20,000 nucleotides of DNA, taken from the IMG/VR virus record IMGVR_UViG_3300048008_000607. One strand, 5' to 3'. A program made the translations under genes and the position numbers. The notes beneath the pieces were generated by a model. The model did not search any database. It was not told the origin of the DNA and was given only the letters and a program-made list of their open reading frames with translations. This stretch comes from an uncultured virus (IMG/VR IMGVR_UViG_3300048008_000607) (taxonomy: Duplodnaviria > Heunggongvirae > Uroviricota > Caudoviricetes > Crassvirales). Below, one piece after another: positions 1,209 through 19,999 of this stretch (the stretch's first letter is position 1; each line of letters begins with the position of its first letter).

Positions 1209-2924
1209 ATGATAAACAACACAGAGATCAATGGATTTTTGATTGAGCAATTCAATCAATACGATCTGGATGTAGGTAAGCCACAAGGCATTTGTCCTTT
1301 GTGCTCTCATGACAGAAAACCTGAGAATAAAAAGCAAAAGTGTGCTTCTTACGATTGGGAACGGGGTCTCGGCACTTGTCATAACTGTGATCAAACTTTT
1401 CAACTACATACGTACCAACGCAAGGGAAATGCGGATAAGATTTATGTTAAACCAGAACCCCTTGAAGTAGTTACAGAAGTTAGTACTAAAGTAGAAGAAT
1501 GGTTTCAATCACGTGGTATATCCAAGGAAACTCTAAAGGCTCTCAAAGTATCTGAGGGCCTTGAGTTTATGCCACAGACCGGAAAACAAGAAAATGCTAT
1601 ACATTTTAATTATTTTGTAGGCGGCGAGCTTATAAATATAAAATATAGAGATGGTAGAAAGAATTTTAAATTATTTAAAGGAGCCGAAAAGGTTTTTTAT
1701 AATATTGATAATATTGTTGGCTTTGAATATTGTATTATTGTGGAAGGCGAGATGGATGCTCTTAGTCTTTATGAAGCTGGTATATCTAACGTTATATCTG
1801 TCCCAAACGGCGCCACATTAAATAGTAATAATTTAGACTACTTAGATAATTGCATTGATTATTTTTTAGATAAAGAAAAAATAATTATAGCAGTAGACTC
1901 TGATGAAGCCGGTCAAGCATTACAATCTGAATTAGTTAGAAGATTAGGAGCTGAAATATGCTACATAGCTAATTTTGATGATTGTAAAGACGCAAACGAA
2001 TATCTTTTAAAATATGGAAAACAAAAACTGGCAGAGTGTATTTCAGGAGCAAAGCCAGTACCGCTGGAGAATGTTACTACATTCCGGGATATTGAAGGAG
2101 AAATTACCGACTTTGTTAAAAATGGCTTTAAAAAAGGATACCAAATTGGCATTCCAAATTTTGATGAAATTTTTTCAACATACACTGGTCAATTCATTAC
2201 TGTTACTGGTATTCCTTCTTCCGGAAAAAGTGATTTTGTCGACCAAATGGTTGTGGGCTATAACCAAAATTATGGTTGGAAAACGGCATTTGCTTCGCCT
2301 GAAAATGCACCAACTTATTTACATGCTCATAAGCTGATGCGTAAAGTGTGGCAAGATATGCCGCGTAAAGATCAAATTGGGTCTGATAAATGGAATCAAG
2401 TAGCTGACCACGTTAATGATAATTTCTTTTTCATTGATATGGACAGATATACACTTGAGTCTGTATTGCGTAAAGGTGCTGAATTAGTAAAACGTAAAGG
2501 AATTAAATGTTTAGTTATTGATCCTTTCAATAAAGTAAGAGATGTTGATGCTAAAACAGAAGATGTAAATAGATATACAATGGAATACTTAACTAAAATT
2601 GAAACCTTTGCTAAAAAGTTTGATGTTTTAGTTATAGTAGTTGCTCACCCAACTAAAATGTATAAAGATGGAAATGGAAAGATTGAAGAACCGACTATGT
2701 ATAATATCAAAGGAGGTGGTGAGTGGTATGATGCTTCTTATCATGGCCTTCTTGTTCACAGGGATTACGACAATAAAACAGTTAAAGCAAAAGTTCTTAA
2801 AGTTAAATTTCAAAACTTAGGAGAAAATGGAGCAGAAGCACATTTCAAATGGGAACCTAGATCTGGTTGTTTTATACCTCATGAGCCTATGAACTTAGAA
2901 AAAGAAGCAATGCCTTGGGAATAG
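1209..2924 (+). CDS. T7 gp4/Twinkle-like DNA primase-helicase
   Basis: N-terminal Zn finger (CPLC...CHNC), TOPRIM (IVEGEMDALS, VDSDEAG, KDANE), SF4 helicase Walker A GIPSSGKS, Walker B LVIDP, VVAHP motif. Confidence 0.95.
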   Translation: MINNTEINGFLIEQFNQYDLDVGKPQGICPLCSHDRKPENKKQKCASYDWERGLGTCHNCDQTFQLHTYQRKGNADKIYVKPEPLEVVTEVSTKVEEWFQSRGISKETLKALKVSEGLEFMPQTGKQENAIHFNYFVGGELINIKYRDGRKNFKLFKGAEKVFYNIDNIVGFEYCIIVEGEMDALSLYEAGISNVISVPNGATLNSNNLDYLDNCIDYFLDKEKIIIAVDSDEAGQALQSELVRRLGAEICYIANFDDCKDANEYLLKYGKQKLAECISGAKPVPLENVTTFRDIEGEITDFVKNGFKKGYQIGIPNFDEIFSTYTGQFITVTGIPSSGKSDFVDQMVVGYNQNYGWKTAFASPENAPTYLHAHKLMRKVWQDMPRKDQIGSDKWNQVADHVNDNFFFIDMDRYTLESVLRKGAELVKRKGIKCLVIDPFNKVRDVDAKTEDVNRYTMEYLTKIETFAKKFDVLVIVVAHPTKMYKDGNGKIEEPTMYNIKGGGEWYDASYHGLLVHRDYDNKTVKAKVLKVKFQNLGENGAEAHFKWEPRSGCFIPHEPMNLEKEAMPWE

Positions 2925-3188
2925 ATGGCTAAAAAAGAAACTAAATGGATGCCTCATTATGAGCCTTCAAATGAAGAGTATGAATGGCATAATTTTTGTA
3001 CCACTAAGGGTATAATTATATCACCTATTGCTGCTGTAAGAGGGTCTAATCCTGAGGAATGGCGTATAGGAGTTTCTTTTATGCCTGATTATAAAAAAAT
3101 AAATTTATCGCCATCTATATATGATAAACATATTATATGGCAGGAAACATTTAAAATGATGAAATATTATTATGATAAATATAGATGA
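2925..3188 (+). CDS. hypothetical protein (87 aa)
   Basis: Starts directly after the primase TAG and overlaps the start of the thyA-like gene; no motif recognised. Confidence 0.7.
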   Translation: MAKKETKWMPHYEPSNEEYEWHNFCTTKGIIISPIAAVRGSNPEEWRIGVSFMPDYKKINLSPSIYDKHIIWQETFKMMKYYYDKYR

Positions 3189-3996
3189 AGAATATAGAGG
3201 TTTACTATCGGGTGTTTTTCACGCGGGTAAAAATAAAGAAGATCGCACGGGCGTTGGTACAAAATCTGTTTTTGGTCGTACAATCCGTCACGACATGGCT
3301 GGAGGGTTTCCTCTTATTACAACAAAAAAAGTTAGTTTCAATGCCGCTCTTACAGAAATATTATGGATACTTCAAGGTCGCACTGATTTACAATATCTTA
3401 CTAACCATAATGTTAATTATTGGACTCCCAACTATGAAGCATCAGGAAGGAACGATGGAACTCTTGGCAAGGTATACGGTTATCAGTGGAGAAATTTCAA
3501 TGGTGTTGATCAATTGCGTAATTTATTATTGGACATCAAAAGAACCCCACATTCGAGAAGACTTTTGGTTAATGCTTGGAATCCTAGCGATTTCGATGAT
3601 ATGGCATTGCCTCCTTGTCATTATGGTTTTCAAGTCTATATAAATAACGGTGTAATGGATCTTATTTGGCAACAAAGATCTGTTGATATATTTTTAGGTT
3701 TACCTTATGATATAGCAATGTATGGTTTATTATTGTTAATGTTAGCTAAAGGAAATGGATATGAGCCAGGGCAATTAATAGGCCAGCTTGGTGATTGCCA
3801 TTTATATAACAATCATTTGGAGCAAGCTAAAATACAATTAGCTAGAGAACCAAAAAATTTACCAACTGTTGATATTTCTTTTGGTTTAAAGATTCAAGAA
3901 GGCGCAAATAACTTTATATTTATACCATCACATAACATGTTTAAATTAAATAATTATGAGTCACACCCAAGAATCAAAGCAGAACTTGCAATCTGA
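3172..3996 (+). CDS. thyA: thymidylate synthase (ThyA) family protein with Asn-to-Asp specificity substitution; possible dCMP methylase
   Basis: DRTGVGT, VYGYQWR, SRR, catalytic PPCH (C149), QRSVDIFLGLPYD (D180 where ThyA has N), DCHLYNNH, C-terminal IKAELAI. Confidence 0.95.
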   Translation: MINIDEEYRGLLSGVFHAGKNKEDRTGVGTKSVFGRTIRHDMAGGFPLITTKKVSFNAALTEILWILQGRTDLQYLTNHNVNYWTPNYEASGRNDGTLGKVYGYQWRNFNGVDQLRNLLLDIKRTPHSRRLLVNAWNPSDFDDMALPPCHYGFQVYINNGVMDLIWQQRSVDIFLGLPYDIAMYGLLLLMLAKGNGYEPGQLIGQLGDCHLYNNHLEQAKIQLAREPKNLPTVDISFGLKIQEGANNFIFIPSHNMFKLNNYESHPRIKAELAI

Positions 3997-4084
3997 AAAA
4001 TTATGGTTTAATAAAACAAACTATATGGCAAAATATTTAAATAAAAAAAGTAATAAAATAATTGAAAAAATAAAAAACAAAAAT

Positions 4085-4504
4085 ATGAAAAAATTTATAT
4101 TTATAATGTTGTTTCCTGTATTTGCTATAGGACAAAATTACTACGATGATGCATTACGTTTTCAAAATAATATAAGAAGCTATTATGATATGCCTGTAAT
4201 GTCATATAATAATGAACTAGCTTTAGAAGCCCAAGTTTGGGCAGAACATTTAGCTAGTATTGATGATGTACAAGTTAGCACAGATAATTATGGTGAAAAT
4301 ATATTTTATATTGATAAAATATATGCAGGTGTACGAAACAAAAATGTTTTATTAGAAGCCTCAATTAATTGGATTGTTGATACAGATAATTGGGATACTT
4401 TTAATCAAATAATATATCCTGAAGCAACAAATATTGGATTTGGTATGGCAGAAAATAATGAATCAATATATGTAGTTGCTAAGTATAATAAACTGCACAA
4501 ATAA
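4085..4504 (+). CDS. secreted CAP/SCP (PR-1-like) domain protein, 139 aa
   Basis: Likely start ATG 4085 gives signal peptide MKKFIFIMLFPVFAIG|Q. CAP-like pattern QNNIR...YNNELALEAQVWAEHLA...YGENIF...FNQIIYPEATNIGFG...VVAKY. Confidence 0.75.
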   Translation: MKKFIFIMLFPVFAIGQNYYDDALRFQNNIRSYYDMPVMSYNNELALEAQVWAEHLASIDDVQVSTDNYGENIFYIDKIYAGVRNKNVLLEASINWIVDTDNWDTFNQIIYPEATNIGFGMAENNESIYVVAKYNKLHK

Positions 4505-4505
4505 T

Positions 4506-5267
4506 ATGTTTTATATTTATCACATTCCTGGTAAAAAAATAGGTGTAACACGTAATCTAAATAACAGAGTTACGCTGGTGCAGGGCTATAAGCCTGATGA
4601 ATATGAAGTTCTTGATTCTTCTGAAGATATAGATTATATATCTGAGAAGGAAATAGAACTTCAAAAGTCTTACGGATATAAAATTGATAGAGCATTATAT
4701 AAAAATTTATTTAAATCAAATGTAAAAATGGACATAAACATCACAGAACAAACAACAACTTTTCCAGTTGAAAAAAAGAAATTAAAAAAGTTTCTTAAAG
4801 ATAACATTGAAAGTAAATGGAAAACTTCATTAGGTGTATTTGAAATAAACAAAGAAACAATTAAATGGATTTTTAAAAACTCTAAAGTATCAATGTACAA
4901 TGATCAACGTTCTTATATTTATAATAAAGCCTTTTATGAAGCTTTTTTGGCAGAGCCAACGTACAACAAAGAAAACATATTTGGACTCATTAGAGACTGG
5001 GCAGACGAGCGCGGTATCTATGATAAAGGAGATGTTAAAACTCAACTAATTAAATTATATGAAGAATCAGGAGAATTATCGCAAGGGATACTTAAAGACA
5101 GCCAACCAGATATTATTGACGCTATTGGTGATTGTGTTGTTGTTCTCACTAATCTCGCCCACCTTGCAGGTACCGACATTGAAAGCTGTATTCAGTCTGC
5201 TTATGATGAAATATCTACTAGAACTGGTGAAATGAAAAATGGTACATTTGTAAAAACAACATTATAA
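4506..5267 (+). CDS. fusion of N-terminal GIY-YIG-like domain and C-terminal MazG-like NTP pyrophosphohydrolase
   Basis: Likely start ATG 4506. N-term FYIYHIPGKKIGVTRNLNNRV...EKEIE resembles GIY-YIG. C-term IRDWADERG...KLYEESGEL...DAIGDCVVVL...AYDEISTRTG is MazG-like (EExGE...DxxGD). Confidence 0.8.
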   Translation: MFYIYHIPGKKIGVTRNLNNRVTLVQGYKPDEYEVLDSSEDIDYISEKEIELQKSYGYKIDRALYKNLFKSNVKMDINITEQTTTFPVEKKKLKKFLKDNIESKWKTSLGVFEINKETIKWIFKNSKVSMYNDQRSYIYNKAFYEAFLAEPTYNKENIFGLIRDWADERGIYDKGDVKTQLIKLYEESGELSQGILKDSQPDIIDAIGDCVVVLTNLAHLAGTDIESCIQSAYDEISTRTGEMKNGTFVKTTL

Positions 5268-5494
5268 TGAGAGATCAAATAATAAAACAAGTTATAAATA
5301 AAATTCAATCAAGATCAGATGTTGGTTATAAAAAGTATGGTGTTACTTTAGCGGATGATGATCAACCACTTGATACATGGTTGCAGCACTTACAAGAAGA
5401 ATTAATGGATGCTGTTAATTATCTTGAGAAAGCTCGTATGGTATTAAGAGATGAGGTTGAAGAATGTTATATTAGAGATGCGAAGAAAAATTAA
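5267..5494 (+). CDS. small all-alpha NTP-pyrophosphohydrolase-like phage protein (75 aa)
   Basis: RSDVGYKKYGVTL...WLQHLQEELMDAVNY pattern (GxxKYG, EExxD) of a common phage MazG/dUTPase-superfamily family; TAATG coupling to upstream gene. Confidence 0.6.
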   Translation: MRDQIIKQVINKIQSRSDVGYKKYGVTLADDDQPLDTWLQHLQEELMDAVNYLEKARMVLRDEVEECYIRDAKKN

Positions 5495-6054: not shown

Positions 6055-6189
6055 ATGAAAAATTGGGAGCTTAGCGTCGGATTATACCCCGGTATACTTA
6101 TAGGTATAAGAACATATGTTGAACCAGAATATAAACAGCACGTGCTTTATTTGCCGTTTGTGGATATTTGCTTAGAAATTGATAATTAA
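6055..6189 (+). CDS. small hypothetical protein (44 aa, MKNWELSVGLYPGILIGIRTY...), not in ORF track
   Basis: ATG 6055 to TAA 6189, 2 nt after the previous stop and 1 nt before the nrdB ATG; beta-strand-like pattern. Confidence 0.65.
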   Translation: MKNWELSVGLYPGILIGIRTYVEPEYKQHVLYLPFVDICLEIDN

Positions 6190-6190
6190 T

Positions 6191-7159
6191 ATGGGTTTAT
6201 TTGATGAAAGAATTGCATACAAACCATTCGAATATCCAGAATACTATACTGAGGGATGGCTTAAACAAGCTCAGGCGTTCTGGCTACATACCGAGATACC
6301 AATGTCAGGTGACGTCAAGGATTGGAACGAAAAGCTTACACACGAAGAGAAAAACTTGGTTGGAAATATCTTGCTGGGCTTTGCACAGACAGAGTGTGCG
6401 GTATCTGATTACTGGACGCAAAAAGTTGTTTCGTGGTTTCCAAAGCATGAAATACAGCAGATGGCTATGATGTTTGGTTCGCAAGAAACAATACATGCTG
6501 TAGCTTATAGTTATTTAAATGAAACATTAGGATTAGAAAACTTTGAAGCATTCCTACAAGATGATGCAACAATGGCTCGATTTGACAACCTCGTTGCTTT
6601 ACCAGGTGATAATACTGTAGAAATTGGTACTTCTCTTGCAGTCTTTAGCGCATTTGCTGAAGGCGTTTCCTTATATTCTGCTTTCGCTGTGTTATACAGT
6701 TTTCAGTTACGTAATCTTCTTAAAGGTATCGGACAACAAATGAAATGGAGTGTTCGTGATGAATCGCTGCATAGTAAAATGGGTTGTCAGTTATTTAGAC
6801 ATATGTGCCAAGAAGATAATAGCTTATTAGAAAAATGTAGAGATGAAGTTATTGAAGCAGCATCGGCAATGCTTGTCGCTGAAGAAGATTATATTGACAG
6901 AATGTTCGAAGCAGGCGATATTGAAGGAATTAAAGCAGCCGACCTTAAACAGTTTATTAGAAAAAGACTTAACGAAAAGTTACAAGAACTTGGTTACCTT
7001 GACCTCGGGCAATACTTTGCTTTTAACAAAGAGCAAGCAAGTACCCTTGACTGGTTTTACCATCTTACAGGCGGTCATACCCATACTGATTTCTTTGCTG
7101 TTCGTCCAACAGACTATTCTAAAGCAAATGAAGGAGAAGATTTTGAAGATATTTGGTAG
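6191..7159 (+). CDS. nrdB: class I ribonucleotide reductase beta subunit
   Basis: YKPFEYP, FWLHTE, ligands E68, E99xxH102, Y106, AEGVSLYSAF, DESLH, C-terminal DFFAVRPTDY. Likely start ATG 6191. Confidence 0.95.
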   Translation: MGLFDERIAYKPFEYPEYYTEGWLKQAQAFWLHTEIPMSGDVKDWNEKLTHEEKNLVGNILLGFAQTECAVSDYWTQKVVSWFPKHEIQQMAMMFGSQETIHAVAYSYLNETLGLENFEAFLQDDATMARFDNLVALPGDNTVEIGTSLAVFSAFAEGVSLYSAFAVLYSFQLRNLLKGIGQQMKWSVRDESLHSKMGCQLFRHMCQEDNSLLEKCRDEVIEAASAMLVAEEDYIDRMFEAGDIEGIKAADLKQFIRKRLNEKLQELGYLDLGQYFAFNKEQASTLDWFYHLTGGHTHTDFFAVRPTDYSKANEGEDFEDIW

Positions 7160-7509: not shown

Positions 7510-7715
7510 TGAAAGAAAACAAACTAATAGAAATGTGGAACAGGATAGAAGTGCTGGGCCAAAACATGCAACAGATAATAACAGAAATGAACAATCTCAG
7601 AGATTTATCTATTGGGACGATGAGCCTAATGAAAAAACTACCTGACTATGATAAAGCAATAGAAGCTTTAACAGAAGATCTAAAAAAAGAAAAAGAAAAT
7701 AAAGATGTGGAATAA
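7509..7715 (+). CDS. hypothetical helical/coiled-coil protein (68 aa)
   Basis: TAATG coupling upstream, overlaps the nrdA start; heptad-like pattern. Confidence 0.7.
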   Translation: MKENKLIEMWNRIEVLGQNMQQIITEMNNLRDLSIGTMSLMKKLPDYDKAIEALTEDLKKEKENKDVE

Positions 7716-9447
7716 CGACTGGGTTAAAGGTGAGGATTATCCTATATGGGGTGATACTGAAGTTTATAAAAAAACAATTACTGGTGGTTACTTGTTTCAA
7801 AATGAATCACCAAAAGAAGCATATTGGCGTGTGGCTAATGCAGTTGCTAAGCGTTTATATAAGCCTGAATTAGCTGAAAAGTTTTTTCAATATATATGGG
7901 ATGGTTGGTTATGTTTAGCTTCACCAGTGCTATCTAATACAGGTACAGATAGAGGTTTACCTATTAGTTGCTTTGGTATTGATGTTGCTGATAGTATAAA
8001 TGATATAGGACAAAAGAATTTAGAAATGATGCTATTAGCCAAGCATGGAGGCGGTGTTGGCATAGGAGTTAATATGATAAGACCCGCCGGTGCTAAAATT
8101 ACAGGTAATGGAACAAGTGATGGAGTGGTCCCGTTTTGCAAGATATACGATTCAACAATACTTGCCACTAATCAAGGATCTGTCCGCAGAGGAGCTGCGT
8201 CAGTTAATATCAATATTGATCACCCCGACTTTGAAGAATGGTTGGAGATCAGAGAACCAAAAGGAGATGTTAATAGACAATCACTTAACTTACACCAGTG
8301 CGCTGTGGTCGGTGACAAGTTTATGCGAAGACTTGAACAAGGAGATAAAGAAGCTAGAGTCAAATGGTCAAAGCTATTACAAAAACGTAAAGCAACTGGA
8401 GAACCTTATATACTCTTTAAGGGAAATACAAACAAAAATAATCCAAAAGCGTATAAATCAAATGGGCTCAAAGTCCATATGACAAACATATGTAGTGAAA
8501 TTACATTACATACAGATGAATCGCATAGCTTTGTTTGTTGTTTATCTTCTGTTAATTTAGATAAATATGATGAATGGAAGAATACTAATTTAATATATGA
8601 TGCAACATGGTTTTTAGACGGGGTACTGGAGGAGTTTATTCAGAAAGCAAAAAACATGAAGGGATTCGAAAACTCTGTCCGCAGTGCGGAAAAAGGACGT
8701 GCCCTTGGTCTAGGAGTATTGGGATGGCACAGTCTACTCCAAAAGAATGGCATTGCGTTCGAAGGTTTATTAGCTCAATTTAAAACACGTGAAATTTTTA
8801 GCAAAATTAAGATTGAGTCTGAAAGAGCATCGCGAGATCTTGCAGAGGTATATGGGGAGCCGCTCTGGTGTGTCGGTACTGGTATGCGTAACACTCATCT
8901 TCGGTCTGTGGCCCCTACAGTCTCTAACAGCAAGCTTAGCGGTAACGTATCTCCTGGAATTGAGCCTTGGGCTGCTAACGTATTTACAGAGCAAAGTGCT
9001 AAGGGTACGTTTATTAGAAAGAATAAAGAACTTAAAAAAGTATTAAGAAAAATTGGAATTGATGTTAAAGAAACTTGGGACAAAATTTTGGAAGATGGTG
9101 GATCCGTTCAAGGAATTAAAGAACTCGATGGATGGTTTTATGATCATGGGGGGAAGCTCAACCAAGAAGAAGGAGAACCATTAAAAAATGTATTTAAAAC
9201 ATTTAAAGAGATTAATCAATTAGAATTAGTTAATCAAGCTGGTATACGTCAAGATTATATAGATCAATCAGTAAGTTTGAATTTAGCATTTCCATCAGAA
9301 GCACAACCTAAATGGCTTAATAAGGTACATTTAGAAGCTTGGAAACGTGGAATTAAAACATTATATTATATGAGAACTGAATCTGTTTTAAGAGGTGATA
9401 TTGCGGCTAAAGCAATGGATCCTGATTGTTTAAGCTGTGACGGATAA
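7705..9447 (+). CDS. nrdA: class I ribonucleotide reductase alpha subunit, short form without ATP-cone
   Basis: ASPVLSN, PISCF, GGGVG, QGSVRRGA, catalytic TNICSE, APTVSNS, IDQSVSLN, KTLYY, C-terminal CLSCDG. Confidence 0.96.
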   Translation: MWNNDWVKGEDYPIWGDTEVYKKTITGGYLFQNESPKEAYWRVANAVAKRLYKPELAEKFFQYIWDGWLCLASPVLSNTGTDRGLPISCFGIDVADSINDIGQKNLEMMLLAKHGGGVGIGVNMIRPAGAKITGNGTSDGVVPFCKIYDSTILATNQGSVRRGAASVNINIDHPDFEEWLEIREPKGDVNRQSLNLHQCAVVGDKFMRRLEQGDKEARVKWSKLLQKRKATGEPYILFKGNTNKNNPKAYKSNGLKVHMTNICSEITLHTDESHSFVCCLSSVNLDKYDEWKNTNLIYDATWFLDGVLEEFIQKAKNMKGFENSVRSAEKGRALGLGVLGWHSLLQKNGIAFEGLLAQFKTREIFSKIKIESERASRDLAEVYGEPLWCVGTGMRNTHLRSVAPTVSNSKLSGNVSPGIEPWAANVFTEQSAKGTFIRKNKELKKVLRKIGIDVKETWDKILEDGGSVQGIKELDGWFYDHGGKLNQEEGEPLKNVFKTFKEINQLELVNQAGIRQDYIDQSVSLNLAFPSEAQPKWLNKVHLEAWKRGIKTLYYMRTESVLRGDIAAKAMDPDCLSCDG

Positions 9448-10732: not shown

Positions 10733-10887
10733 TATCCTAATTTCCCCCCTCTTTTCCGGCATTTAGCAATATAACCCGATGCATAAGCTGATGGGAATAC
10801 TCTGTATTTTGCTTTTGCTTTACGATAACATGCATCCTTTTTAGTTAAAGGTGTAGATGTTTTTGCTGTTATTGGGTTATATTTCAT
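10732..10887 (-). CDS. small basic protein resembling the N-terminal half of DUF5872-like proteins (51 aa), not in ORF track
   Basis: MKYNPITAKTSTPLTKKDACYRKAKAKYRVFPSAYASGYIAKCRKRGGKLG; ATGA overlap with the giant gene's stop and TAATG overlap with the next gene. Confidence 0.75.
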   Translation of the reverse strand: MKYNPITAKTSTPLTKKDACYRKAKAKYRVFPSAYASGYIAKCRKRGGKLG

Positions 10888-13800
10888 CTTTTAAATTTTC
10901 TTTTAACTGTTCTATTTATATTTCTATTTGTATCTCTAGGATTAAACTTTTTAGATTTTTTAGTTTGCTTTTCAATCATGTTCAAATCCCATTCGCTCCA
11001 ACCGAGTGATAATGCAATTGCTTGCCATAATTCTGTTTCAGATTGCATAGCAGTATAAAGATGATCTGCTTTCTGTACAATTCTATCTGCGGGTAAGTTT
11101 GTTGCAGCAGATAATACTTTACCTCCAGCTAAAAATGCAGGATTTTCTAAACTAAATCCTTCTGTAAATACTTTTTCTTTCGATTGCTTATAAGTAAATG
11201 TTTTACCGGCAGATTCAAGTTTTCTTAATTTAGAATTAATAGGAGGCGAAAGTGATGTTGCTTCAATTGCAATTTTAGTATAATCAGGCCTTGATTTTTC
11301 GGATTGCTCAATTATTTCTATAATCATGTTTTTTACAGTAGCAGCCGCTGCACCATAAACGCCAATACCCCTTAGTAAAGTATCAAAACTACTGTTACCA
11401 ATTCTAAATAGTCTAGACTTTTCTTTATCATCATCTTCATCATCAAACAATAAAGCAAATAATCCTTGTTGTAAAGCAGAGAATATAATATTCTGTATTA
11501 CACTATAATAAGCAATCTTACTTATATTTGTTTTCCAATCTCCACGTCCATTAATCAAATCTAATGTAGCTTTTTTAGTTAACCGAGCGTATTGCATAGG
11601 TGTATTACCAAAAGCTAATATAAGACGCCCTAGTGAGCTTGCTTGCTGTGATGATATTCTATCAGGTCTTGCAGATTGTTGTGTTTCTTCTGCAATTTCT
11701 TGAAAATCTGTAAATGCTTTCGATTCAGCCTCTTTTTGACTTAAACCTTCTTTTAAATATTTATTAATTCTGTTACGGTACATTGTAGCTCCGCCAGATG
11801 CAATCGCAAAACTATCAGCAATTTGAGTTGGTGTAAAACCAAATTTAAGCAAAGCACTTAGCATTGCTCTTGCTGTATTTTTAGACCCTTTTGCTGCTCT
11901 AGCAATTTCATCCGCATTAACATCAGTTTGTAAACCTGTTCTACGTTGCTTTAAAAAATCTGAATTAAATAATGTTGTAAAATCTTTTACATATTGTGGA
12001 AAATTACCAAAAGCAAGTGCTGCGTTAATAGGATTGTTATCACTAAAATTTATAAAGTTAACAGCTGATAAAGTCTGGAGCACAGCGGATCTAGCGTTGA
12101 AAAACATAATAGCACCTACAGAATTGTTCGTCCAATCCATAAATTGTTTTTCAATTTTACTAGCACCAAATTTTCTATTAGTGCCGGTACGCATTCTATG
12201 GAGCATGTCATTTAATGCCTCAACATATGTATCCCCGTATAAAGCTCTTAACTTTTCTTTATTTTGATCAGAAAATATTTCGTCAGCGTTTTGTTTCCAT
12301 TCAGTTAAAAATTCACTACGCTTAACACCATTTATATAAGATACAATGTCTGTTGTTATATCACCTGAATCCCAATTATCTGATGGTTCTGGATAACCTT
12401 CTGGCTGTAACGCCATTAATCGATCGGCAAAAGCTTTTAACTTTTTGTCTGCTTTAACTATTTCTAGGTTTTGCTGTACTAATTCTGGGCTTCCTTCGGT
12501 TCCTGGTATGTCCATACCTTGTGTAGCCCAAATATAAATACGCACCGCGTCTTGATTAGTTAGTCCAGTAGCATTCCTTTTACCTAACCCACCCGGCACA
12601 TCTTTTTTAGCTTCTTTTTTTAGTACTTGCCAATCCCTAAGTGCTTTTTGTTTTGCAGCCTCATATTGTTGAATACCACGAGAAAATGGTCGAAGTAAAT
12701 TTTCCTTATACCATTCCATTTGCCGATCTCCCACTTTACCTTTACCTAATGTTGCATATAATAAACCAACAAAATCATCTGCTGAATAAGGAATAAAGAA
12801 TTTTTTACCTTTACCTTTTCCAACAACTTTGGCTTCAACCGGTGAAAATCTTTTAGCCCAATCTACTTTAGTAGTTTTTTGTAATATATCTTCATTAAAT
12901 TGTCTATTTAAAGATTTTTTATTAGGATCATTTTTAAAATATACTAAGTCCTTGTTTACATCTAATATATTATTATATCTGTCAACAGTATTACCAGTCT
13001 TTGGTATAAGGTCTTTTCCTTTTTGTCTACTTTGAACTAAATCTACAAAGCTTTTATCTAAAACTTTTTTAATAGCATTTGTAAAATCTAAAGCGCTATC
13101 GCCTTCTTTGTAATTATCTATTATTTTTTCAAGTTGTTCTCTTAATGTAGCAATTGGAGGAGTATGTTCATATGTAACTTCTTTAACTCCTTTTTGGTAT
13201 GATCTTAATTTACCCATCATTCTAAGCGGAGTATCACTTGCGGTATTACTACCCCAAAGCTGTAAAAGATTTTTAGCGTCTTCTTTAAGGTTTTTAAAAG
13301 TTAATCTTGTTATTTCATCTAAAACAACTTTTTTATTGTACTCTGCTTGATTATCAAAGTCATCTAAATTTTCTTTTATATATTGAGTAAACTTAACAGG
13401 ATCTTTAGCAAAGCTGCCACTTTTCCCCGTCATAGTTTTAGGATTACTATTTTTAACTAATTCTCTTAGTTTTTTATTATCAAAGAATATTGTAAAGTTT
13501 ACTTTTCCTGTTACTTTAAATCTTTTTAAATCTTCTTTAGATATTAAGTTTTTGCTTTTAACAAACTCAAATAATTCTTTTGAATTATTACCTACAACAA
13601 ATCCACCGTTTTTAAGTGGGTCACCTATATATCTCATAAAATTAATTACATCTTCTAAATTTTTAGATTTTTGTAATTCAATAATTTTATTTTCTACAAT
13701 TTTTCTTGCTCTTACTTCAGATATAGCAACATCTAAATTTTTAACAAATTTTTCATTTGTTTCAATATCAGCTATATCTTCTGGCTTTGTAAATGTTTTT

Positions 13801-16481
13801 TTAGCTGTTTCTTCAAAAACTTGTTGCTCTTCTTTATTGGGCAATAACTTTTTAGCTTCATCAATTGCTTTTTTTAGCGCTTTTGCAAAATTACCAGTGG
13901 CTTTAAAGGCTAATTTGAATGATTTTAAGAATGTTTTTGCTAATGCAATGGCAAGTTCAGGAATAATTAAAGAAACATATAAAGTATCATTATTTTTTTG
14001 AAGTTTATCTAAATAGTCAATAGCTCTATCAATTTTTTCAGATATAATTTCAATAAAGTTACTTGGAACTTCTTGCCCTTGTAACTCTTGAATAGCTTTA
14101 AACTTTTCAACAACTTCAGGTTTTGATAACGATGTAAGCACATTATCTAATCCAATTTCATCAGCTAAAATTTTTGCTAATGAAGTTTTACGAGCACCTT
14201 TAACACTTCCGGGTGCGTTTAAAAAATATTTTAAAAATTCAGCTTTACTTATATAACGTTTTTTAAATACCTTTTTTCCTTCTGCTGTTTTTTCTCGTAA
14301 CTGTTTGCCAGTTTTAGGATCTAATACAGGCTCATTAAATTCTTTAAAGTTACGATTTATAGTTTCTTGCGGTATTGCTGGATATATTTTTTCAAAGTTA
14401 TCTCTAAGAAATTGTTCATACGCAGCTGTTCTACCAAACACTTTTTTAAATGTATTTGTTAATTCATTTCTAAATCCGGTAGTAAGAGCTTGTTTAAACT
14501 TTTTATCAGTAACAGCGGGTAATTTAGTTCCTAATGTTTTTTCTACAGCAGCAACCACTTCGTTCTGTGTATCTTCAGATAAGTTAAGATCTTTAGCAAG
14601 CTCAGTCTTTATTTCTTGCTTTGCTTGTTCTTTAACTTCCATCTGTGTATCAGCAGCTGTTGTATCGGTAACTCCTTTAGCTTCTGTAACATCTAACTCA
14701 AAATCTGTTTTAAGATTTCTTTGTGCTGCTTCAATACCTCTAGTGGCTGCAAACTTATTTACATAAGCAGATAAAGGAACTTTTGTATCAGGTTTGTAAG
14801 AATTAATTAAATCAAGAATACCACGTTGACCAGTAAGTATTTCATCAACCATAAGGTCCATTTCAAATCCTGGTACATTTCTATATTTAGATGCTATACG
14901 CTTAGCCATTGGGCGATAAAGTTCTAATATTTCTGCGATACCCTCTTTGCCTTTATCTTCGTATAATTTATTTACTTTTTGTGCTTGCTTATTACCTTTA
15001 TCTTGTAAATTTTCTTTAACCCCTTGTATTCTATTTTTAGCTTTTATATATTCAGCTTTATATCCTTCTGTAGCTAAAGCATATTCCTCTTCGGTAATTT
15101 TATTTTTATTTTTCTTTTCTTTAAGATCGTTAAATCTTTTTACTTGCAGTTTAGCTAAATCATCAAGATTATTAATATCATTAATATCTTTGTCAGAAGC
15201 AAAATCAAAAATAGCATTACCTTTAATTATTCTATTTTTAAGTCGCTCTTCAACTTCTGATATTTTATTTTCAATTCCTTTTTTTGCAGTTTTATCTAAA
15301 ACACCTCTTAACTTAGTATTAAGATTAGAAAGTTCATCTATATCACTTTCAATTCCTTTAATATCCTCAGGAGCTCTTCCTAAAGAAATAGCATTTCTTA
15401 CGTCTTTATTACCTAAACCACTAAATCCAGCACCGCCAATAAACCCTTGTACACCAGCTTCCCAAGTATCTTGTTCTGTAAAAGCTTCTGCAAATCTAGC
15501 TGCAGTTTGTCCAACATCATCTGTTTTACCGTATGTTTGTTGTGCTTTTTCTAGTGCGGTTTGAATCACTTCAGTACCACTTTCAGCAGCGCCTGCTAAA
15601 ATAAAATTACTTAATTTACGCATTGCGGCTCCAGTAAGTTGTTTACTTGCAGCACTAGCAACTTTACCTAACCCTATTGTTTCTGCAGCGGCCATTGCGG
15701 AAGAAAAAACTAAAGGAGTTAGAACTTCATCTTTACCACTATTAACTAATTCTTCTAAAGGTATGTTTAATCTTTTTGCTTTTTCTTCGTTTATTGATAT
15801 ATATGAATCGCCAAAAAAATCTGTACCAATCATTAAACCAGCACCTACTTTACCACCTAATAAGAATCCGGCACCCCCTTCTATTAAGGACGGTACAAAA
15901 GAAGTAGCAGCATTGAATATCCCTCCTGCAATATCACTTATATCACCTTCTTTAAATCCTTCAATTATTTCACCAGTTTCTTTTGATTTTGCCTGAGACT
16001 CTTGTATTTTATTAATTGCTTCAATTTTGTCTTCTTCTGAAAGTCCTTCAGTCCAAAAAGAATCTTCACCTGCATATTCTACAAATTTATTTATATTTTC
16101 ATCACCAAATATTTTTCTATATATCATTCCTGATGTTAGATTAATTTTTGGAGAAATTTGTTTAATACGCTCAACCATATTATTTAATGAATTGGCTACG
16201 CTTTCAGAAAAAGTAATATCTTCTTTTTCAGGATTATTATATGATATAGTTAAATCTAATAATTGCTTATTTAGATTTCCAAGTGAGTCCGAAGAAGGCA
16301 TTCCCAAGGCTAAGTCCATATTTACGGGTGCTACATCGCTGCCCACAATCGCACCCTGAACCGTGGGAGGCAGCTTTACTTCTTGTTCGATAACAGCAGA
16401 AGGAAATTTATTTAAAAAAGCATTTGTTTGATCTTCTGGTATATTATACTTTTTTCCGTTTGGTAATGTGTATATAGGCAT
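10884..16481 (-). CDS. giant (1865 aa) putative internal virion/DNA-ejection protein with embedded sigma-70 region-2-like domain
   Basis: Last and largest of three helical proteins after tail genes. Gly/Ala-rich hydrophobic helices near the N-terminus (GGAGFLLGGKVGAG, AAESGTEVIQ); C-terminal EETQQSARP/LAFGNTPMQY region; sigma-like segment at aa ~510-590. Confidence 0.75.
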   Translation of the reverse strand: MPIYTLPNGKKYNIPEDQTNAFLNKFPSAVIEQEVKLPPTVQGAIVGSDVAPVNMDLALGMPSSDSLGNLNKQLLDLTISYNNPEKEDITFSESVANSLNNMVERIKQISPKINLTSGMIYRKIFGDENINKFVEYAGEDSFWTEGLSEEDKIEAINKIQESQAKSKETGEIIEGFKEGDISDIAGGIFNAATSFVPSLIEGGAGFLLGGKVGAGLMIGTDFFGDSYISINEEKAKRLNIPLEELVNSGKDEVLTPLVFSSAMAAAETIGLGKVASAASKQLTGAAMRKLSNFILAGAAESGTEVIQTALEKAQQTYGKTDDVGQTAARFAEAFTEQDTWEAGVQGFIGGAGFSGLGNKDVRNAISLGRAPEDIKGIESDIDELSNLNTKLRGVLDKTAKKGIENKISEVEERLKNRIIKGNAIFDFASDKDINDINNLDDLAKLQVKRFNDLKEKKNKNKITEEEYALATEGYKAEYIKAKNRIQGVKENLQDKGNKQAQKVNKLYEDKGKEGIAEILELYRPMAKRIASKYRNVPGFEMDLMVDEILTGQRGILDLINSYKPDTKVPLSAYVNKFAATRGIEAAQRNLKTDFELDVTEAKGVTDTTAADTQMEVKEQAKQEIKTELAKDLNLSEDTQNEVVAAVEKTLGTKLPAVTDKKFKQALTTGFRNELTNTFKKVFGRTAAYEQFLRDNFEKIYPAIPQETINRNFKEFNEPVLDPKTGKQLREKTAEGKKVFKKRYISKAEFLKYFLNAPGSVKGARKTSLAKILADEIGLDNVLTSLSKPEVVEKFKAIQELQGQEVPSNFIEIISEKIDRAIDYLDKLQKNNDTLYVSLIIPELAIALAKTFLKSFKLAFKATGNFAKALKKAIDEAKKLLPNKEEQQVFEETAKKTFTKPEDIADIETNEKFVKNLDVAISEVRARKIVENKIIELQKSKNLEDVINFMRYIGDPLKNGGFVVGNNSKELFEFVKSKNLISKEDLKRFKVTGKVNFTIFFDNKKLRELVKNSNPKTMTGKSGSFAKDPVKFTQYIKENLDDFDNQAEYNKKVVLDEITRLTFKNLKEDAKNLLQLWGSNTASDTPLRMMGKLRSYQKGVKEVTYEHTPPIATLREQLEKIIDNYKEGDSALDFTNAIKKVLDKSFVDLVQSRQKGKDLIPKTGNTVDRYNNILDVNKDLVYFKNDPNKKSLNRQFNEDILQKTTKVDWAKRFSPVEAKVVGKGKGKKFFIPYSADDFVGLLYATLGKGKVGDRQMEWYKENLLRPFSRGIQQYEAAKQKALRDWQVLKKEAKKDVPGGLGKRNATGLTNQDAVRIYIWATQGMDIPGTEGSPELVQQNLEIVKADKKLKAFADRLMALQPEGYPEPSDNWDSGDITTDIVSYINGVKRSEFLTEWKQNADEIFSDQNKEKLRALYGDTYVEALNDMLHRMRTGTNRKFGASKIEKQFMDWTNNSVGAIMFFNARSAVLQTLSAVNFINFSDNNPINAALAFGNFPQYVKDFTTLFNSDFLKQRRTGLQTDVNADEIARAAKGSKNTARAMLSALLKFGFTPTQIADSFAIASGGATMYRNRINKYLKEGLSQKEAESKAFTDFQEIAEETQQSARPDRISSQQASSLGRLILAFGNTPMQYARLTKKATLDLINGRGDWKTNISKIAYYSVIQNIIFSALQQGLFALLFDDEDDDKEKSRLFRIGNSSFDTLLRGIGVYGAAAATVKNMIIEIIEQSEKSRPDYTKIAIEATSLSPPINSKLRKLESAGKTFTYKQSKEKVFTEGFSLENPAFLAGGKVLSAATNLPADRIVQKADHLYTAMQSETELWQAIALSLGWSEWDLNMIEKQTKKSKKFNPRDTNRNINRTVKRKFKR

Positions 16482-16493
16482 ATTAAATTTTAT

Positions 16494-18044
16494 TTAACGT
16501 ATTCCAGCTTGTTCTTTTTGTATTCTAATTCTAGCACTTTCTAATGTGCTTTTTTCATTTAATTGGTTTAATGTATCTGTAGTGTTTATTTCTTTTAATG
16601 TACCTTCAACATCAATGTTAGGGCTAATCTCATATTGGCTTTCATCAAATTCGGCATCAGTATCTTTTTCTGTATTAAACATGGTTAAACGATCATTAGC
16701 AGTGTATCCAAATAAATCTTTAATAAATTTATCAACTGCCATTCCTGGTGTTTCACCTATAATAAATGGTTTTTGTTTTCCATTTACTTCTATAACATAT
16801 GCGTTAGGATTTAATAAATTTCCGTCGTTATCTGTTTGACTATTTTGATATATTTCAATACCAGGTATAGTGTTATTTGCGTACTCAATAAGAGATTTTG
16901 CCTGCGCCTCGTTTATTGGTTGAGCACTTAAAAATTTACTCACTGGCTTTAAAAACACTGAAGTAGTTTGTAACTCTTTTTGACGCATTAATTCATCAAA
17001 TTGATATTTAGTTAAATCCCCTTTACCTTTAGCTTGTTCAGCTTTAATTTTATTAACTCTATCGTATTCGGTTTTAAGATTAGATGATGTATTTAAAGCT
17101 ATACTTTTATATTGTTCTTTAACTCTATTAACAAAGTCTTCTGGTAAAGCAACATCTTTAAATGATTGTATATATTCATTTTCATCAATATCTCCATCAT
17201 TATTTGCGTCAATAGCATCTTTACCTGTGAGTGTTTTAAACATAGGTGCTAATTCTCCAAAGGGTCCACCCATTTTTAAAAAATCTGTTGCTAATGAAAG
17301 TGCTTGCTTTGGTTGCATTTCAAGATTTCTAAAATAGTTATCAATCTTTTGTTCAAGATATGCGCTTTTTTCAGTATCTTCACCCCCAATAAACATCCCT
17401 TTAGATGCTGCTTGTTCTGTAATGCCTATAATATCTTTTTCTATTTTATTATGAGCTTCATAATCTTTTGTAGTTAATTCAGGTAAATCATCAAAAGAAA
17501 CCTCTTGACCTGTTGTATTACTTTTAAAATACATTTGGCCATCTTTAAATACTGGCTCACCATTTAATTGTACAATATCTTGTATCAATCCTTTTTCATC
17601 AGCCGTTAAAGAATCTGAAAAATCACCACTATCAGAAATATCTTTATAAGCCTGCGAATACTCTTTTATAGCATTAATAGAGCCTTGCATTTGTGCAATT
17701 TTTTTATTTTGATTAGATAAAGAATCCATATAATCAAATTGATTCATTGATCCTTTTTGACTAACTAATTGTCTATTTTCATCTTTAACAGATAAAGCTT
17801 GTTGGGTATACCAACCTCTCCATGCTTCAGGGACACCATCAGTTTGTAAAGCACCTAAGCTTTTATAGTCTTTAGCTTTTATTAATTCTTCTCTTTCTTT
17901 TTCTAATCTAAGTTTTTCAGCTTCGGCTTCTCTTTTCTGTTGAGCAGATTCAAAAGCTTGTACGCCTCTATCCACAGCATTACTTACACTGACATACCTA
18001 TCAGCTGAAATTCCCGCGCCTCTTATTAATGCTAAATTTGCCAT
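16494..18044 (-). CDS. putative internal virion/ejection protein (516 aa) with EF-hand loop
   Basis: Helical, charged protein between the Gln/Ala-rich protein and the giant protein; DANNDGDIDENE loop. Confidence 0.6.
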   Translation of the reverse strand: MANLALIRGAGISADRYVSVSNAVDRGVQAFESAQQKREAEAEKLRLEKEREELIKAKDYKSLGALQTDGVPEAWRGWYTQQALSVKDENRQLVSQKGSMNQFDYMDSLSNQNKKIAQMQGSINAIKEYSQAYKDISDSGDFSDSLTADEKGLIQDIVQLNGEPVFKDGQMYFKSNTTGQEVSFDDLPELTTKDYEAHNKIEKDIIGITEQAASKGMFIGGEDTEKSAYLEQKIDNYFRNLEMQPKQALSLATDFLKMGGPFGELAPMFKTLTGKDAIDANNDGDIDENEYIQSFKDVALPEDFVNRVKEQYKSIALNTSSNLKTEYDRVNKIKAEQAKGKGDLTKYQFDELMRQKELQTTSVFLKPVSKFLSAQPINEAQAKSLIEYANNTIPGIEIYQNSQTDNDGNLLNPNAYVIEVNGKQKPFIIGETPGMAVDKFIKDLFGYTANDRLTMFNTEKDTDAEFDESQYEISPNIDVEGTLKEINTTDTLNQLNEKSTLESARIRIQKEQAGIR

Positions 18045-18056
18045 ATTATTTTATTT

Positions 18057-18824
18057 TTATCCGCCTAGTTGTTTTATTTGAACATCAGGCATAGTTGCTC
18101 CTCCAGCAAATGCTGCATTTACATCTTGAAATTGTCCACTCTTATTTTTTATAAAACGAGAAGGGTTTTCTTTAATTAATTTTTTTGAAGCTAATTTGCC
18201 ACTTGCTAATTTTTTAGTTGGTATTTTTCCAGGTCCCATAGCCCCTAATGCTCCACCTGCTGCTTCCGCAATACCACCAACTAAATCCTGCGTTGCTGCT
18301 GCTCTTGCTGCGTCTGCTGCAGCTTTTCTTTGTTGAGACATACCTAATAATGTTTCTGTTCTTCCGAACTCTTGCTCTTGTACATACTGTTGCCCCTGCG
18401 CTCTAGCCGCTTGTAGGTTTTGTTGACCTTGAGCCGCGGCCATTTGATTAGCTGATTCTTGCTGACCAATGCTAGCTGCCGATGCTTGTAAATTTTGGGA
18501 TTGTTGTCCTGCCATAGCTTGAGCTAATGCAGCAATTCCAGATCCGCCAGCCGCTGCTTGCATTCCTGAAAGTGTACTAGATAAAGCCTGTTGTTGTTGT
18601 TGAGATTGGAACTGTGCTTGTTGTTGATTTACAGTTAAATCCTCAAAGGGGTTTGTCATTTGAGCAGAGGGATCCTTAAACTCAAATGTTTCGTAAGCTT
18701 GTCTTCTTTGAGCCAATTCTGCCTTAGCAGATTCTTGTTCTTTTCTTCTAGCTCTACCTCCTACAAGAGAACCTGCTGCTTTTATAATTCCTGGAGCTGC
18801 TGCTGCTATTAATGGTAAAGGCAT
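18057..18824 (-). CDS. Gln/Ala/Gly-rich putative ejection (pilot-like) protein
   Basis: N-terminal hydrophobic Ala/Gly segment followed by a basic patch, long Q/A-rich helices and Gly-rich C-terminal helix; first of the three-gene set after tail genes. Confidence 0.65.
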   Translation of the reverse strand: MPLPLIAAAAPGIIKAAGSLVGGRARRKEQESAKAELAQRRQAYETFEFKDPSAQMTNPFEDLTVNQQQAQFQSQQQQQALSSTLSGMQAAAGGSGIAALAQAMAGQQSQNLQASAASIGQQESANQMAAAQGQQNLQAARAQGQQYVQEQEFGRTETLLGMSQQRKAAADAARAAATQDLVGGIAEAAGGALGAMGPGKIPTKKLASGKLASKKLIKENPSRFIKNKSGQFQDVNAAFAGGATMPDVQIKQLGG

Positions 18825-18836
18825 AATATTCTATTT

Positions 18837-19160
18837 TTAATTACTACTTATATTTATTTCAGAGTTTACTGCATATAATTCAGTAAAATCTGTTGATTCA
18901 TTTGTCATTGTAACTCTTGCGTTGTATCCCAACACACCATTACTATTTATTACATTATTTTTAGCAAACATAAAGTAATCACCTATTGCAGGCCTTGGGG
19001 TAGTTGAAGCCACATCAACAGTAAAACTATATTTATCAGATGAAACTGCAGTACAGTTACCTAATTCAACTAATTTACCATTTTTTTGATAATAAACAAC
19101 ATCACCTGTCTGCAAAGATGTGTTTAGTTTTTGATTAAAATTTATAGTTAAATTAGCCAT
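18837..19160 (-). CDS. putative tail/structural protein (107 aa, beta-rich)
   Basis: LNTSLQTGDVVYY...GDYFMFAKN...NSNGVLGYNARVTMTN...ELYAVNSEI resembles tail-associated proteins of Bacteroidota podoviruses; TAATG-coupled. Confidence 0.55.
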   Translation of the reverse strand: MANLTINFNQKLNTSLQTGDVVYYQKNGKLVELGNCTAVSSDKYSFTVDVASTTPRPAIGDYFMFAKNNVINSNGVLGYNARVTMTNESTDFTELYAVNSEINISSN

Positions 19161-19999
19161 TATTTTGTTTTAAATTTAAGTGTTCTATCTCCATCAAATG
19201 TTCCATGCGCACGCAAATTTGTTAAAAGTTTTTTACTATATTGAGACGTTAGTGCATATTTTTCATGCCATGAGGCATCCCAAGAATTTCCTTGAACATA
19301 TTTTACCTCTTGATTACTTCGGTGAGGATATGTTCTAATTTTTGTCATAGGATAAAAACCTATAATAGAAAAAGGTAATTTTGCATACGCTGCCAACCCT
19401 ACTTCATTTGTTTTCTGCGGTATTGTTATACCAAATGTAAATTGAATACCAGAGTAATTAGGTAATGCAATCAGCCCATTTGGCCCGTTAGTTTCTGAAA
19501 TATAAACATTGTTTCCGCCACCTATATAATAATTTCTCCATCTGTCGGTATCTTTAATTGTAGCTGTCCACCAACCATCTTCTGTTACTGCAGCAACGCC
19601 ATCTCCATCCGTGGTTGTATCTATTAACGTACCAGCGATATCTATAGAAACTCTTTCATTAGTAATATAAGTTTCATTATTAGCATAACTAGAACTAGGG
19701 GAAATTAAATCTATTGGTACTTTTAAACTTGTAATTGTGCCTTGATTAATAGCAACCCATAATCCTAAAAAGGCTGCTAAATCATCACCAGCACCTGGAT
19801 TTGGCAATACTACTGTGTAGCCTGTTTTAACATAAACATGCTGTCCTGTTAAAGGTCCTTGAGTGGAATATTGAGCATATAAATTAGTAGAATGTGTTCC
19901 TCTGATATCTGCAGGAGCTTGAGGAGAATTAATCCATTTAAATTTACTTGTCATTATGTTTGACCAAGTTGTACCATTTAAATATTCTAAAACATTATT
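19160..19999 (-). CDS. C-terminal part of a putative tail fibre/structural protein, 5'-truncated by window edge
   Basis: Frame stays open upstream of ATG 19954 to the edge (NNVLEYLNGTTWSNI-MTSKF); LEYLNGTTW resembles a common tail-fibre motif; Thr/Gly/Asn-rich beta sequence. Confidence 0.6.
   Translation of the reverse strand, partial: NNVLEYLNGTTWSNIMTSKFKWINSPQAPADIRGTHSTNLYAQYSTQGPLTGQHVYVKTGYTVVLPNPGAGDDLAAFLGLWVAINQGTITSLKVPIDLISPSSSYANNETYITNERVSIDIAGTLIDTTTDGDGVAAVTEDGWWTATIKDTDRWRNYYIGGGNNVYISETNGPNGLIALPNYSGIQFTFGITIPQKTNEVGLAAYAKLPFSIIGFYPMTKIRTYPHRSNQEVKYVQGNSWDASWHEKYALTSQYSKKLLTNLRAHGTFDGDRTLKFKTK

Follow-up and report, generated by a model that had tools for sequence, protein, structure and literature searches.

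The subject of this report is a 20,000-nucleotide stretch of DNA (hereafter the window) from an uncultured virus assigned to the Crassvirales (IMG/VR record IMGVR_UViG_3300048008_000607), and in particular a gene of the thymidylate synthase (ThyA) family on its plus strand (3172..3996). As judged from sequence and by analogy with characterized enzymes, the 274-residue product of this gene most likely makes 5-methyl-deoxycytidine monophosphate (5-methyl-dCMP, or 5mdCMP) for DNA that contains 5-methylcytosine (5mC). We think it probable that the ThyA-like enzyme methylates dCMP, that a neighbouring MazG-type enzyme supplies the dCMP, that host enzymes incorporate the product, and that the phage DNA acquires 5mC in this way. 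A natural dCMP C5-methylase had already been suggested in the original prediction, made from the letters of the window alone; it is the best supported of the readings considered here, and fits the residue rules in print as well as the in vivo results published for other natural Asp177 enzymes.

Positions 3172-3996 of the plus strand translate into a stop-free reading frame of 274 amino acids containing DDMALPPCHYGFQVYINNGVMDLIWQQRSVDIFLGLPYDIAMY. The product matches PF00303 from end to end (residues 7-273 on positions 2-265 of the 266-position profile; 293.8 bits, E 1.3e-87, cut-off 24.3) as well as phrog_160 (E 2.5e-99), and passes the cut-off of TIGR03284, the NCBI equivalog for thymidylate synthase (281.4 bits; cut-off 108.35). 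It was aligned with Escherichia coli ThyA (from NC_000913), with the deoxycytidylate C5-methyltransferases of Xanthomonas phage Xp12 and Pseudomonas phage PaMx74 (Bosavirus/Pamexvirus), with the dCMP hydroxymethylase T4 gp42, and with the 5-hydroxy-dCMP synthase RB69 gp48. The protein is identical to E. coli ThyA at 41% of positions across its full length; for the Xp12 enzyme the value is 30%, and for T4 gp42 21%. Given these values and the profile matches, the earlier description of the protein as a very canonical ThyA is correct. Entries for the Lactobacillus casei thymidylate synthase, 1njc included, are among its sequence matches. The equivalents of Cys146, Arg166, Ser167, Asp169, His207, Tyr209, Tyr94, Arg126/127, and Glu58 (E. 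coli numbering, used below for three-letter residues and numbered positions) are all present, and the catalytic residues that were tabulated are invariant in 121/121 close homologues, a set made up of the window protein and 120 listed relatives of 65-93% identity found by searching 5.8 billion protein clusters. The full-length profile match and this catalytic set place the protein within the ThyA family.

The active-site motif reads QRSVDIFLGLPYDIAMY in the window protein and QRSCDVFLGLPFNIASY in E. coli ThyA. In the alignment, the catalytic C149 (TGT, 3616-3618) and the adjoining H150, which together occupy 3616..3621, pair with C146 and H147, while L146 (3607..3609) pairs with L143 and D172 (3685..3687) with D169; all four residues are identical in each of the 121 homologues. 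The residue that governs pyrimidine specificity, N177 in E. coli, is replaced by D180 (GAT, 3709..3711), which lies 31 residues after C149. Translation and alignment thereby confirm what had been claimed for the motif, for D180 and its spacing from C149, and for its equivalence to N177, and they likewise bear out the retention of the His that follows the catalytic Cys and the presence of Asp at the N177 position of T4 gp42. Two further substitutions, F176Y and S180M, flank the switch within Y179-D180-I181-A182-M183 (3706..3720), and this Tyr and Met also occur in 121/121 homologues.

In thymidylate synthases specific for deoxyuridine monophosphate (dUMP; EC 2.1.1.45), Asn177 reads O4 and N3-H of uracil, and the window protein departs from this class by having Asp180 instead. 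It shares Asp177 with the Xp12-type dCMP C5-methyltransferases, as part of a GLPYD motif also found in Xp12 and PaMx74. According to PMC13326640, N177D shifts preference to dCMP; a bulky hydrophobic side chain at L143 would keep water out and so yield a methyl instead of a hydroxymethyl group; T4-type hydroxymethylases and MilA carry Asp or Glu at this position; and D169N is the mark of 5-hydroxy-dCMP synthases. The window protein combines a non-acidic residue at 143 (L146) with Asp at 169 (D172). Its Leu146 differs from the Asp of T4 and the Glu of RB69, and since the D169 equivalent is kept as Asp, the Asn signature of 5-hydroxy-dCMP synthases, found in RB69 gp48, is absent. By these published rules, the pattern of Leu143, Asp169, and Asp177 makes the protein a predicted 5mdCMP synthase, i.e., a dCMP C5-methyltransferase.

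Several studies connect such enzymes with modified cytosine. A survey of sewage and coastal viromes found no other family tied as strongly to cytosine-modified contigs as the thymidylate synthase domain; residues 177 and 147 discriminate best, with Asp177 in the modified contigs, and a pyrophosphohydrolase domain co-occurs (PMC8670742, eLife 2021). The Xp12 enzyme and five of seven metagenomic Asp177 enzymes generated 5-methyldeoxycytidine (5mdC) in E. coli, and cytosine is replaced by 5mC in Xp12 and PaMx74 (bioRxiv 10.1101/2024.12.05.627091). Pamexvirus genomes resist cutting at restriction sites that contain C, and carry a row of genes for dihydrofolate reductase (DHFR), deaminase, thymidylate synthase, and pyrophosphohydrolase (PMC9206674).

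Conservation of the Asp among related phage homologues, which had been named as a check on the idea, is nearly complete. Asp occupies the switch column in 120 of the 121 close homologues; the related IMG/VR loci have one such gene each, with Asp in 80/80 (79 GAT, 1 GAC), and a further set of viral and metagenome loci has it in 96/96. Because the Asp is kept across homologues and loci, it is neither a sequencing variant nor a one-off. Cellular enzymes behave differently: when one genome per prokaryote species was scanned, the matches of at most 46% identity were cellular ThyAs with Asn in 70/70, whereas all ten matches of at least 57% identity read PYDIAMY, and these lie in metagenome-assembled genomes, six of which are labelled Flavobacteriaceae, Flavobacteriales, or Bacteroidetes.

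Among 150 representative homologues, position 177 is Asn in 132, Asp in 17, and Ser in one. In raw counts that ignore shared ancestry, His147 is lost in 6/17 of the Asp177 representatives and in 0/132 of those with Asn177, and Ser180 in 10/17 and 9/132, respectively. S180M is fixed in 121/121 close homologues, and Ser is also absent from this position in Xp12, PaMx74, T4, and RB69; as a co-varying site, Ser180 is not named in the accessible text of the literature on Asp177 enzymes that was examined. Two other substitutions were rejected as parts of the signature: W83N, as W83 also varies in Asn177 enzymes (62/132), and F176Y, which is not enriched with Asp177 (5/17 versus 28/132).

Behind the sole Asn row among the 121 (P0045) stands a cluster whose 12 sequences were drawn from several sources; ten of these have Asn and two have Asp. 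Identity is 92-100% within the Asn forms and 97% between them and the Asp forms. The cluster is nested inside the Asp clade on the tree, and for this reason the small sub-lineage is read from its sequences as one that has reverted to Asn. Two more alignment columns also split the Asn and Asp forms, with Q/N at column 168 and S versus K/N at column 194. As for genomic context, IMG/VR holds no match to the Asn sub-lineage above 80% identity, and a scan of metagenomes returned one partial contig, at 96%, which bears Asp; for another Asp177 lineage (P0262) the best IMG/VR match was at 41%.

The tree was built with FastTree from 121 rows. It drew on 100 representatives, selected from the 150 by a length of 240-345 amino acids, and on 16 close homologues, sampled from the 120 at every eighth with P0045 added; five references and the window protein were also included. 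The window clade comprises 19 rows with a support of 97 and lies among Asn177 ThyAs, far from the branch of Xp12 and PaMx74, whose stem measures 1.66 changes per column. The distribution of Asp177 on the tree needs from 3 changes, forced by well-supported branches, to 13. Common descent with the Xp12 and PaMx74 enzymes is not borne out, in view of the tree position and the 30% identity. On sequence grounds, the window clade is a lineage separate from Xp12; since the deep nodes are weakly supported, the tree speaks for a separate lineage only, and an independent origin is not proven.

The second component of the proposed pathway is encoded a short distance downstream, on the same strand (4506..5267). 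The gene, whose longest open reading frame (ORF) begins at a TTG at 4476 and whose first ATG is at 4506, encodes a fusion of a GIY-YIG-like N-terminus, a middle part, and a C-terminal MazG-type all-alpha nucleoside triphosphate (NTP) pyrophosphohydrolase domain. The protein matches PF03819 (22.8 bits against a cut-off of 22, E 1.1e-4) and phrog_1992 (E 1.6e-32), and its AlphaFold model has a mean predicted local distance difference test (pLDDT) score of 86. Compared with VIA-align, the C-terminal domain superposes on 1vmg with Z 10.3 and a root-mean-square deviation of 2.0 over 81 residues, with further values of Z 9.1 for the MazG of cyanophage S-2L and 9.4 for 2a3q, a mouse deoxycytidine triphosphatase (dCTPase) entry; family and fold of this domain are those of MazG. 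The fold matches include the mouse dCTPase but also enzymes with other specificity, and a role of the fusion as a pyrophosphatase converting dCTP to dCMP is proposed with the help of the structural model. Residues 1-63 resemble, weakly, the GIY-YIG domain of I-TevI (Z 5.5, 20% identity), a likeness that agrees with the YIY...KIGVT...R motif and a weak T5orf172 match. Foldseek found no match at E <= 0.001 for the fusion, including its middle part (about residues 80-150).

Among the 80 related loci, 79 encode the fusion at full length, usually directly after thyA; common to all 80 are the genes for the ThyA-like and MazG proteins, a 75-amino-acid protein, and a DUF1064 nuclease. This constant association parallels the pyrophosphohydrolase found beside thyA in PaMx74 and Xp12, and it speaks for the methylation of dCMP. 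T4 pairs a nuclease that cuts cytosine-containing DNA with a dCTPase. The joining of a nuclease-like domain to an enzyme of the nucleotide pool, as suggested by the sequence of the GIY-YIG/MazG fusion, recalls that pairing.

In the pathway that we propose, the MazG-type pyrophosphatase would probably convert dCTP to dCMP, feeding the ThyA-like enzyme while draining unmodified dCTP. The ThyA-like enzyme would then turn dCMP and methylene-tetrahydrofolate into 5-methyl-dCMP and dihydrofolate, in the manner of the Xp12 deoxycytidylate methyltransferase. Host cytidine monophosphate (CMP) kinase and nucleoside diphosphate kinase would raise 5-methyl-dCMP to the triphosphate, host DHFR would also be used, and the host replicase would build the methylated nucleotide into phage DNA; the kinases and the polymerase are assigned to the host because the relatives encode no recognisable counterpart. 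The outcome would be 5mC in place of much or all of the cytosine, and protection from many restriction enzymes.

The gene content of relatives bears on how much of this pathway the phage could supply. Five near-complete relatives (at least 94% complete) have exactly one PF00303 match each, and none has a match to ThyX. A complete relative (G004; 63.9 kb, 32% G+C, with terminal repeats) was scanned with Pfam on 81 of its 83 ORFs and with PHROGs on 28, two large ORFs spanning locus cuts being left out. It encodes a primase/helicase, ERF, an exonuclease, a sigma-70-type factor, GroEL/GroES, and a class I ribonucleotide reductase, along with the ThyA-like gene, the CAP-domain gene described below, the MazG fusion, a terminase, and virion genes. 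Its Pfam scan gave no methyltransferase, glycosyltransferase, carbamoyltransferase, or other tailoring enzyme, and in the combined scan there was no deaminase, DHFR, or nucleotide kinase. A 3073-amino-acid protein of this genome matches the C-terminal domain of the crAss-type muzzle (E 4.3e-9).

Set beside the systems already known, the window protein is closest in expected function to the Xp12-type enzymes, with 5mdCMP as the common product. Xp12 and PaMx74 have in common with it the ThyA fold, the catalytic Cys, Asp177, Tyr176 (GLPYD in all three), and Asp169, together with an all-alpha NTP pyrophosphohydrolase gene beside thyA and a ribonucleotide reductase in the genome. The differences are nonetheless considerable: position 180 is Met in the window protein and Gly in Xp12 and PaMx74; the ThyA-type C-terminal tail is kept in the former and absent from Xp12, PaMx74, T4 gp42, and RB69 gp48; and the pyrophosphatases show no detectable sequence similarity, that of PaMx74 and Xp12 belonging to the PRA-PH branch and that of the window to MazG. 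Moreover, genes for a dCMP deaminase and a DHFR lie in cis in Xp12 and PaMx74, and PaMx74 encodes its own DNA polymerase, none of which was found in the relatives of the window. The MetaGPA Asp177 homologues resemble the window protein in being enzymes of uncultured phages picked by Asp177, with coastal seawater viromes among the samples, and in having a pyrophosphohydrolase domain that co-occurs on their contigs. Those that were tested had been chosen for an adjoining deaminase, which was not found in the window clade, and the second discriminating site, position 147, is unchanged in the window protein.

A further comparison is offered by engineered enzymes. E. coli N177D and the L. casei N229D mutant, described as dCMP methylases, have, like the window protein, a canonical scaffold, His147, and one Asn-to-Asp switch; unlike them, the window enzyme is natural, its Asp is fixed over a long divergence, and F176Y and S180M are fixed in addition. 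With T4 gp42 and RB69 gp48, the window protein shares the fold, the catalytic Cys, and Asp177; it differs from them at L143, where they have Asp or Glu, at H147, where both have Thr, and from RB69 at D169, which is Asn there. T4 and RB69 also carry glycosyl- or arabinosyl-transferases and a kinase, for which no counterpart was found in the phage of the window or its relatives.

Some of these observations weigh against 5mC replacement by way of the ThyA-like enzyme. The families of dCMP deaminase, DHFR, and thymidylate or deoxynucleoside monophosphate (dNMP) kinase had no match in the five near-complete relatives, and the scan of G004 gave no DNA polymerase match, so that full replacement would require the host's own enzymes to accept the methylated nucleotide. 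The His at position 147 of the window protein corresponds to Pro in Xp12 and PaMx74 and to Thr in T4 and RB69, and its Leu at position 143 corresponds to Asn in Xp12 and PaMx74; this Asn also means that the rule by which a hydrophobic side chain implies methylation is not fully general. The Asn row among the close homologues points in the same direction. In addition, many phages whose DNA is unmodified also have MazG genes, an example being Cellulophaga phage phi10:1, which has MazG but no ThyA in the stretch examined. Lastly, two of the seven metagenomic Asp177 enzymes tested yielded no 5mdC, and the in vivo tests co-expressed the T4 dNMP kinase (bioRxiv 10.1101/2024.12.05.627091).

These points leave room for other readings of the gene. 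It might encode an ordinary thymidylate synthase, converting dUMP to deoxythymidine monophosphate (dTMP) and merely tolerating the Asp, which together with the ribonucleotide reductase would boost deoxythymidine triphosphate (dTTP) for an AT-rich genome (33% G+C). The gene is the only thymidylate synthase homologue in the five near-complete relatives, its scaffold is highly canonical to the point of passing the ThyA equivalog cut-off, His147 and the C-terminal tail are kept, and the Asn forms within the clade, at 97% identity, indicate that this scaffold is one step from a normal enzyme. We nevertheless regard this explanation as unlikely: the Asp is fixed across the 65-93% identity range while Asn is found in 70/70 cellular ThyAs and 132/150 representatives, Ser180 was lost along with the switch, the likely type of host has an Asn177 ThyA of its own, and the literature has the Asn-to-Asp change switching preference to dCMP (PMC8670742, PMC13326640). 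If dCMP is indeed the substrate, 5-methyl-dCMP could serve mainly as a route to thymidylate, with a host deaminase leading on to dTMP and dTTP, so that the pool shifts from C to T and little 5mC enters DNA. This was the alternative envisaged at the outset, and part of it has stood up, in that a 5mC-selective deaminase converting 5-methyl-dCTP (5mdCTP) to dTTP has been proposed for Xp12-type phages, 70% of the deaminase genes in modified contigs lying at most 3 kb from a thymidylate synthase gene (bioRxiv 10.1101/2024.12.05.627091); the AT-rich genome would also suit it. The deaminase itself is where it falters, since no match was found in the five near-complete relatives and the published cases have the deaminase in cis; besides, the usual path through dUMP needs no change of specificity. 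We give this route only a small chance.

It is also conceivable, at a still slimmer chance, that the enzyme acts on dCMP and leaves a different group at C5, giving 5-hydroxymethyl-dCMP as in T4 or 5-hydroxy-dCMP as in RB69, as a base for further decoration. Asp177 is common to T4 gp42 and RB69 gp48, the residue rules are young and drawn from few tested enzymes, and Xp12 itself breaks the L143 rule. Against such a product stand L146, which is Leu and not Asp or Glu, and D172, which is Asp and not Asn, each in 121/121 homologues; the ThyA C-terminus, kept here and missing from both reference enzymes; the identity of 21% to T4 gp42; and the lack of any tailoring enzyme in the Pfam scan of G004. 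Methylation of dCMP at C5 remains the reading that we prefer.

The high novelty assigned to the finding in the original prediction does not hold, because Asp177 homologues that make 5mdCMP have already been published (bioRxiv 10.1101/2024.12.05.627091; PMC8670742). What is known includes Asp177 ThyA homologues making 5mdC, from Xp12 and from metagenomic phages, and the occurrence of Asp177 in cytosine-modified contigs. What is new is a separate, near-canonical ThyA lineage that keeps His147, has no phage deaminase, DHFR, kinase, or second synthase found in five relatives, and includes a reversion to Asn. None of the five motif variants of the window clade is present in four supplementary files of PMC8670742, and the literature search found no paper joining thymidylate synthase, 5-methylcytosine, and marine Flavobacteria phages.

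The source of the window is an uncultured marine phage of Flavobacteria-type hosts. This stretch occurs in sequencing runs of seawater and marine metagenomes, which come from 16 studies, and the lineage is apparently abundant; the genomes of its relatives measure 58-66 kb. When the 20-kb window was compared by megablast with cultured phages, the only match was one of 213 bases in the ribonucleotide reductase of Cellulophaga phage phi14:2. At the protein level, the primase/helicase is 42% identical to its counterpart in Cellulophaga phage phi10:1, with other best matches in phages of Tenacibaculum, Riemerella, and Flavobacterium, and the best ThyA matches in cultured phages are about 45% identical. 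One of these last, Pseudomonas phage Y10 (OQ572411.1), was dropped as a cultured relative, as its ThyA is canonical (PFNIASY) and its unverified record resembles host DNA; the region around its thyA is like that of a Pseudomonas chromosome, an lgt-like membrane protein adjoining the canonical gene. In one Flavobacteriaceae metagenome-assembled genome (G006), a large contig encodes the genome's own canonical Asn177 ThyA, and three further contigs (C7, C18, and C25) carry phage-type Asp177 copies. One of its phage-type contigs is 117 kb long, about twice the usual genome length in the phage family of the window.

The remaining genes of the window frame the module just described. Upstream, on the plus strand, a T7-type primase/helicase of the replication module (1209..2924; Toprim and DnaB_C, phrog_239 E 5.8e-90) is followed by a gene for an 87-amino-acid protein (2925-3188, +) that is present in 71 of the 80 related loci and flanks the module on that side. 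Between the ThyA-like and MazG genes lies a gene for a CAP-domain protein (3956..4504, +; PF00188 E 3.7e-14), which occurs in 21/80 related loci and is probably a variable insert outside the pathway; it shares 41 bases with the end of thyA. The 75-amino-acid protein already mentioned (5267-5494, +; 80/80 loci) flanks the module on the other side and matches five PHROGs of unknown function, and neither this nor the 87-amino-acid neighbour has a Pfam match at a loose threshold. The nucleotide-supply module continues on the same strand with the small (6179..7159, PF00268 E 2.7e-56) and large (7705..9447, PF02867 E 2.4e-90) subunits of ribonucleotide reductase. On the minus strand, an ORF of 1865 amino acids (10884-16481) has no Pfam or PHROG match and has relatives in 43/80 loci. 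Beyond it, four minus-strand ORFs (16494-19954) have no tblastn match in the 80 related loci, which marks that end of the window as a variable region.

Taken at its widest, the analysis might point to a large family of marine flavobacterial phages with genomes of about 60 kb, distributed world-wide, that replaces cytosine with 5mC by means of two genes of its own, the ThyA-like gene and the GIY-YIG/MazG fusion. In such a family the Asp switch would be separate from that of Xp12 and reversible, the fusion would clear dCTP and perhaps cut unmodified DNA, and phosphorylation and polymerisation would be left to the host; this fuller picture is offered tentatively, and we consider it doubtful in its entirety. 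Because the lineage passes the TIGR03284 cut-off, annotation pipelines will name it a normal thymidylate synthase, masking a likely change of function. The natural pair of Asp and Asn forms, 97% identical, provides a ready test of the effect of one residue in a native scaffold. If the proposed function is true, many abundant phages of marine Flavobacteria would have DNA containing 5-methylcytosine, with consequences for how restriction and anti-restriction play out in the sea, for the calling of methylation in marine metagenomes, and for the minimal size of a base-replacement pathway.

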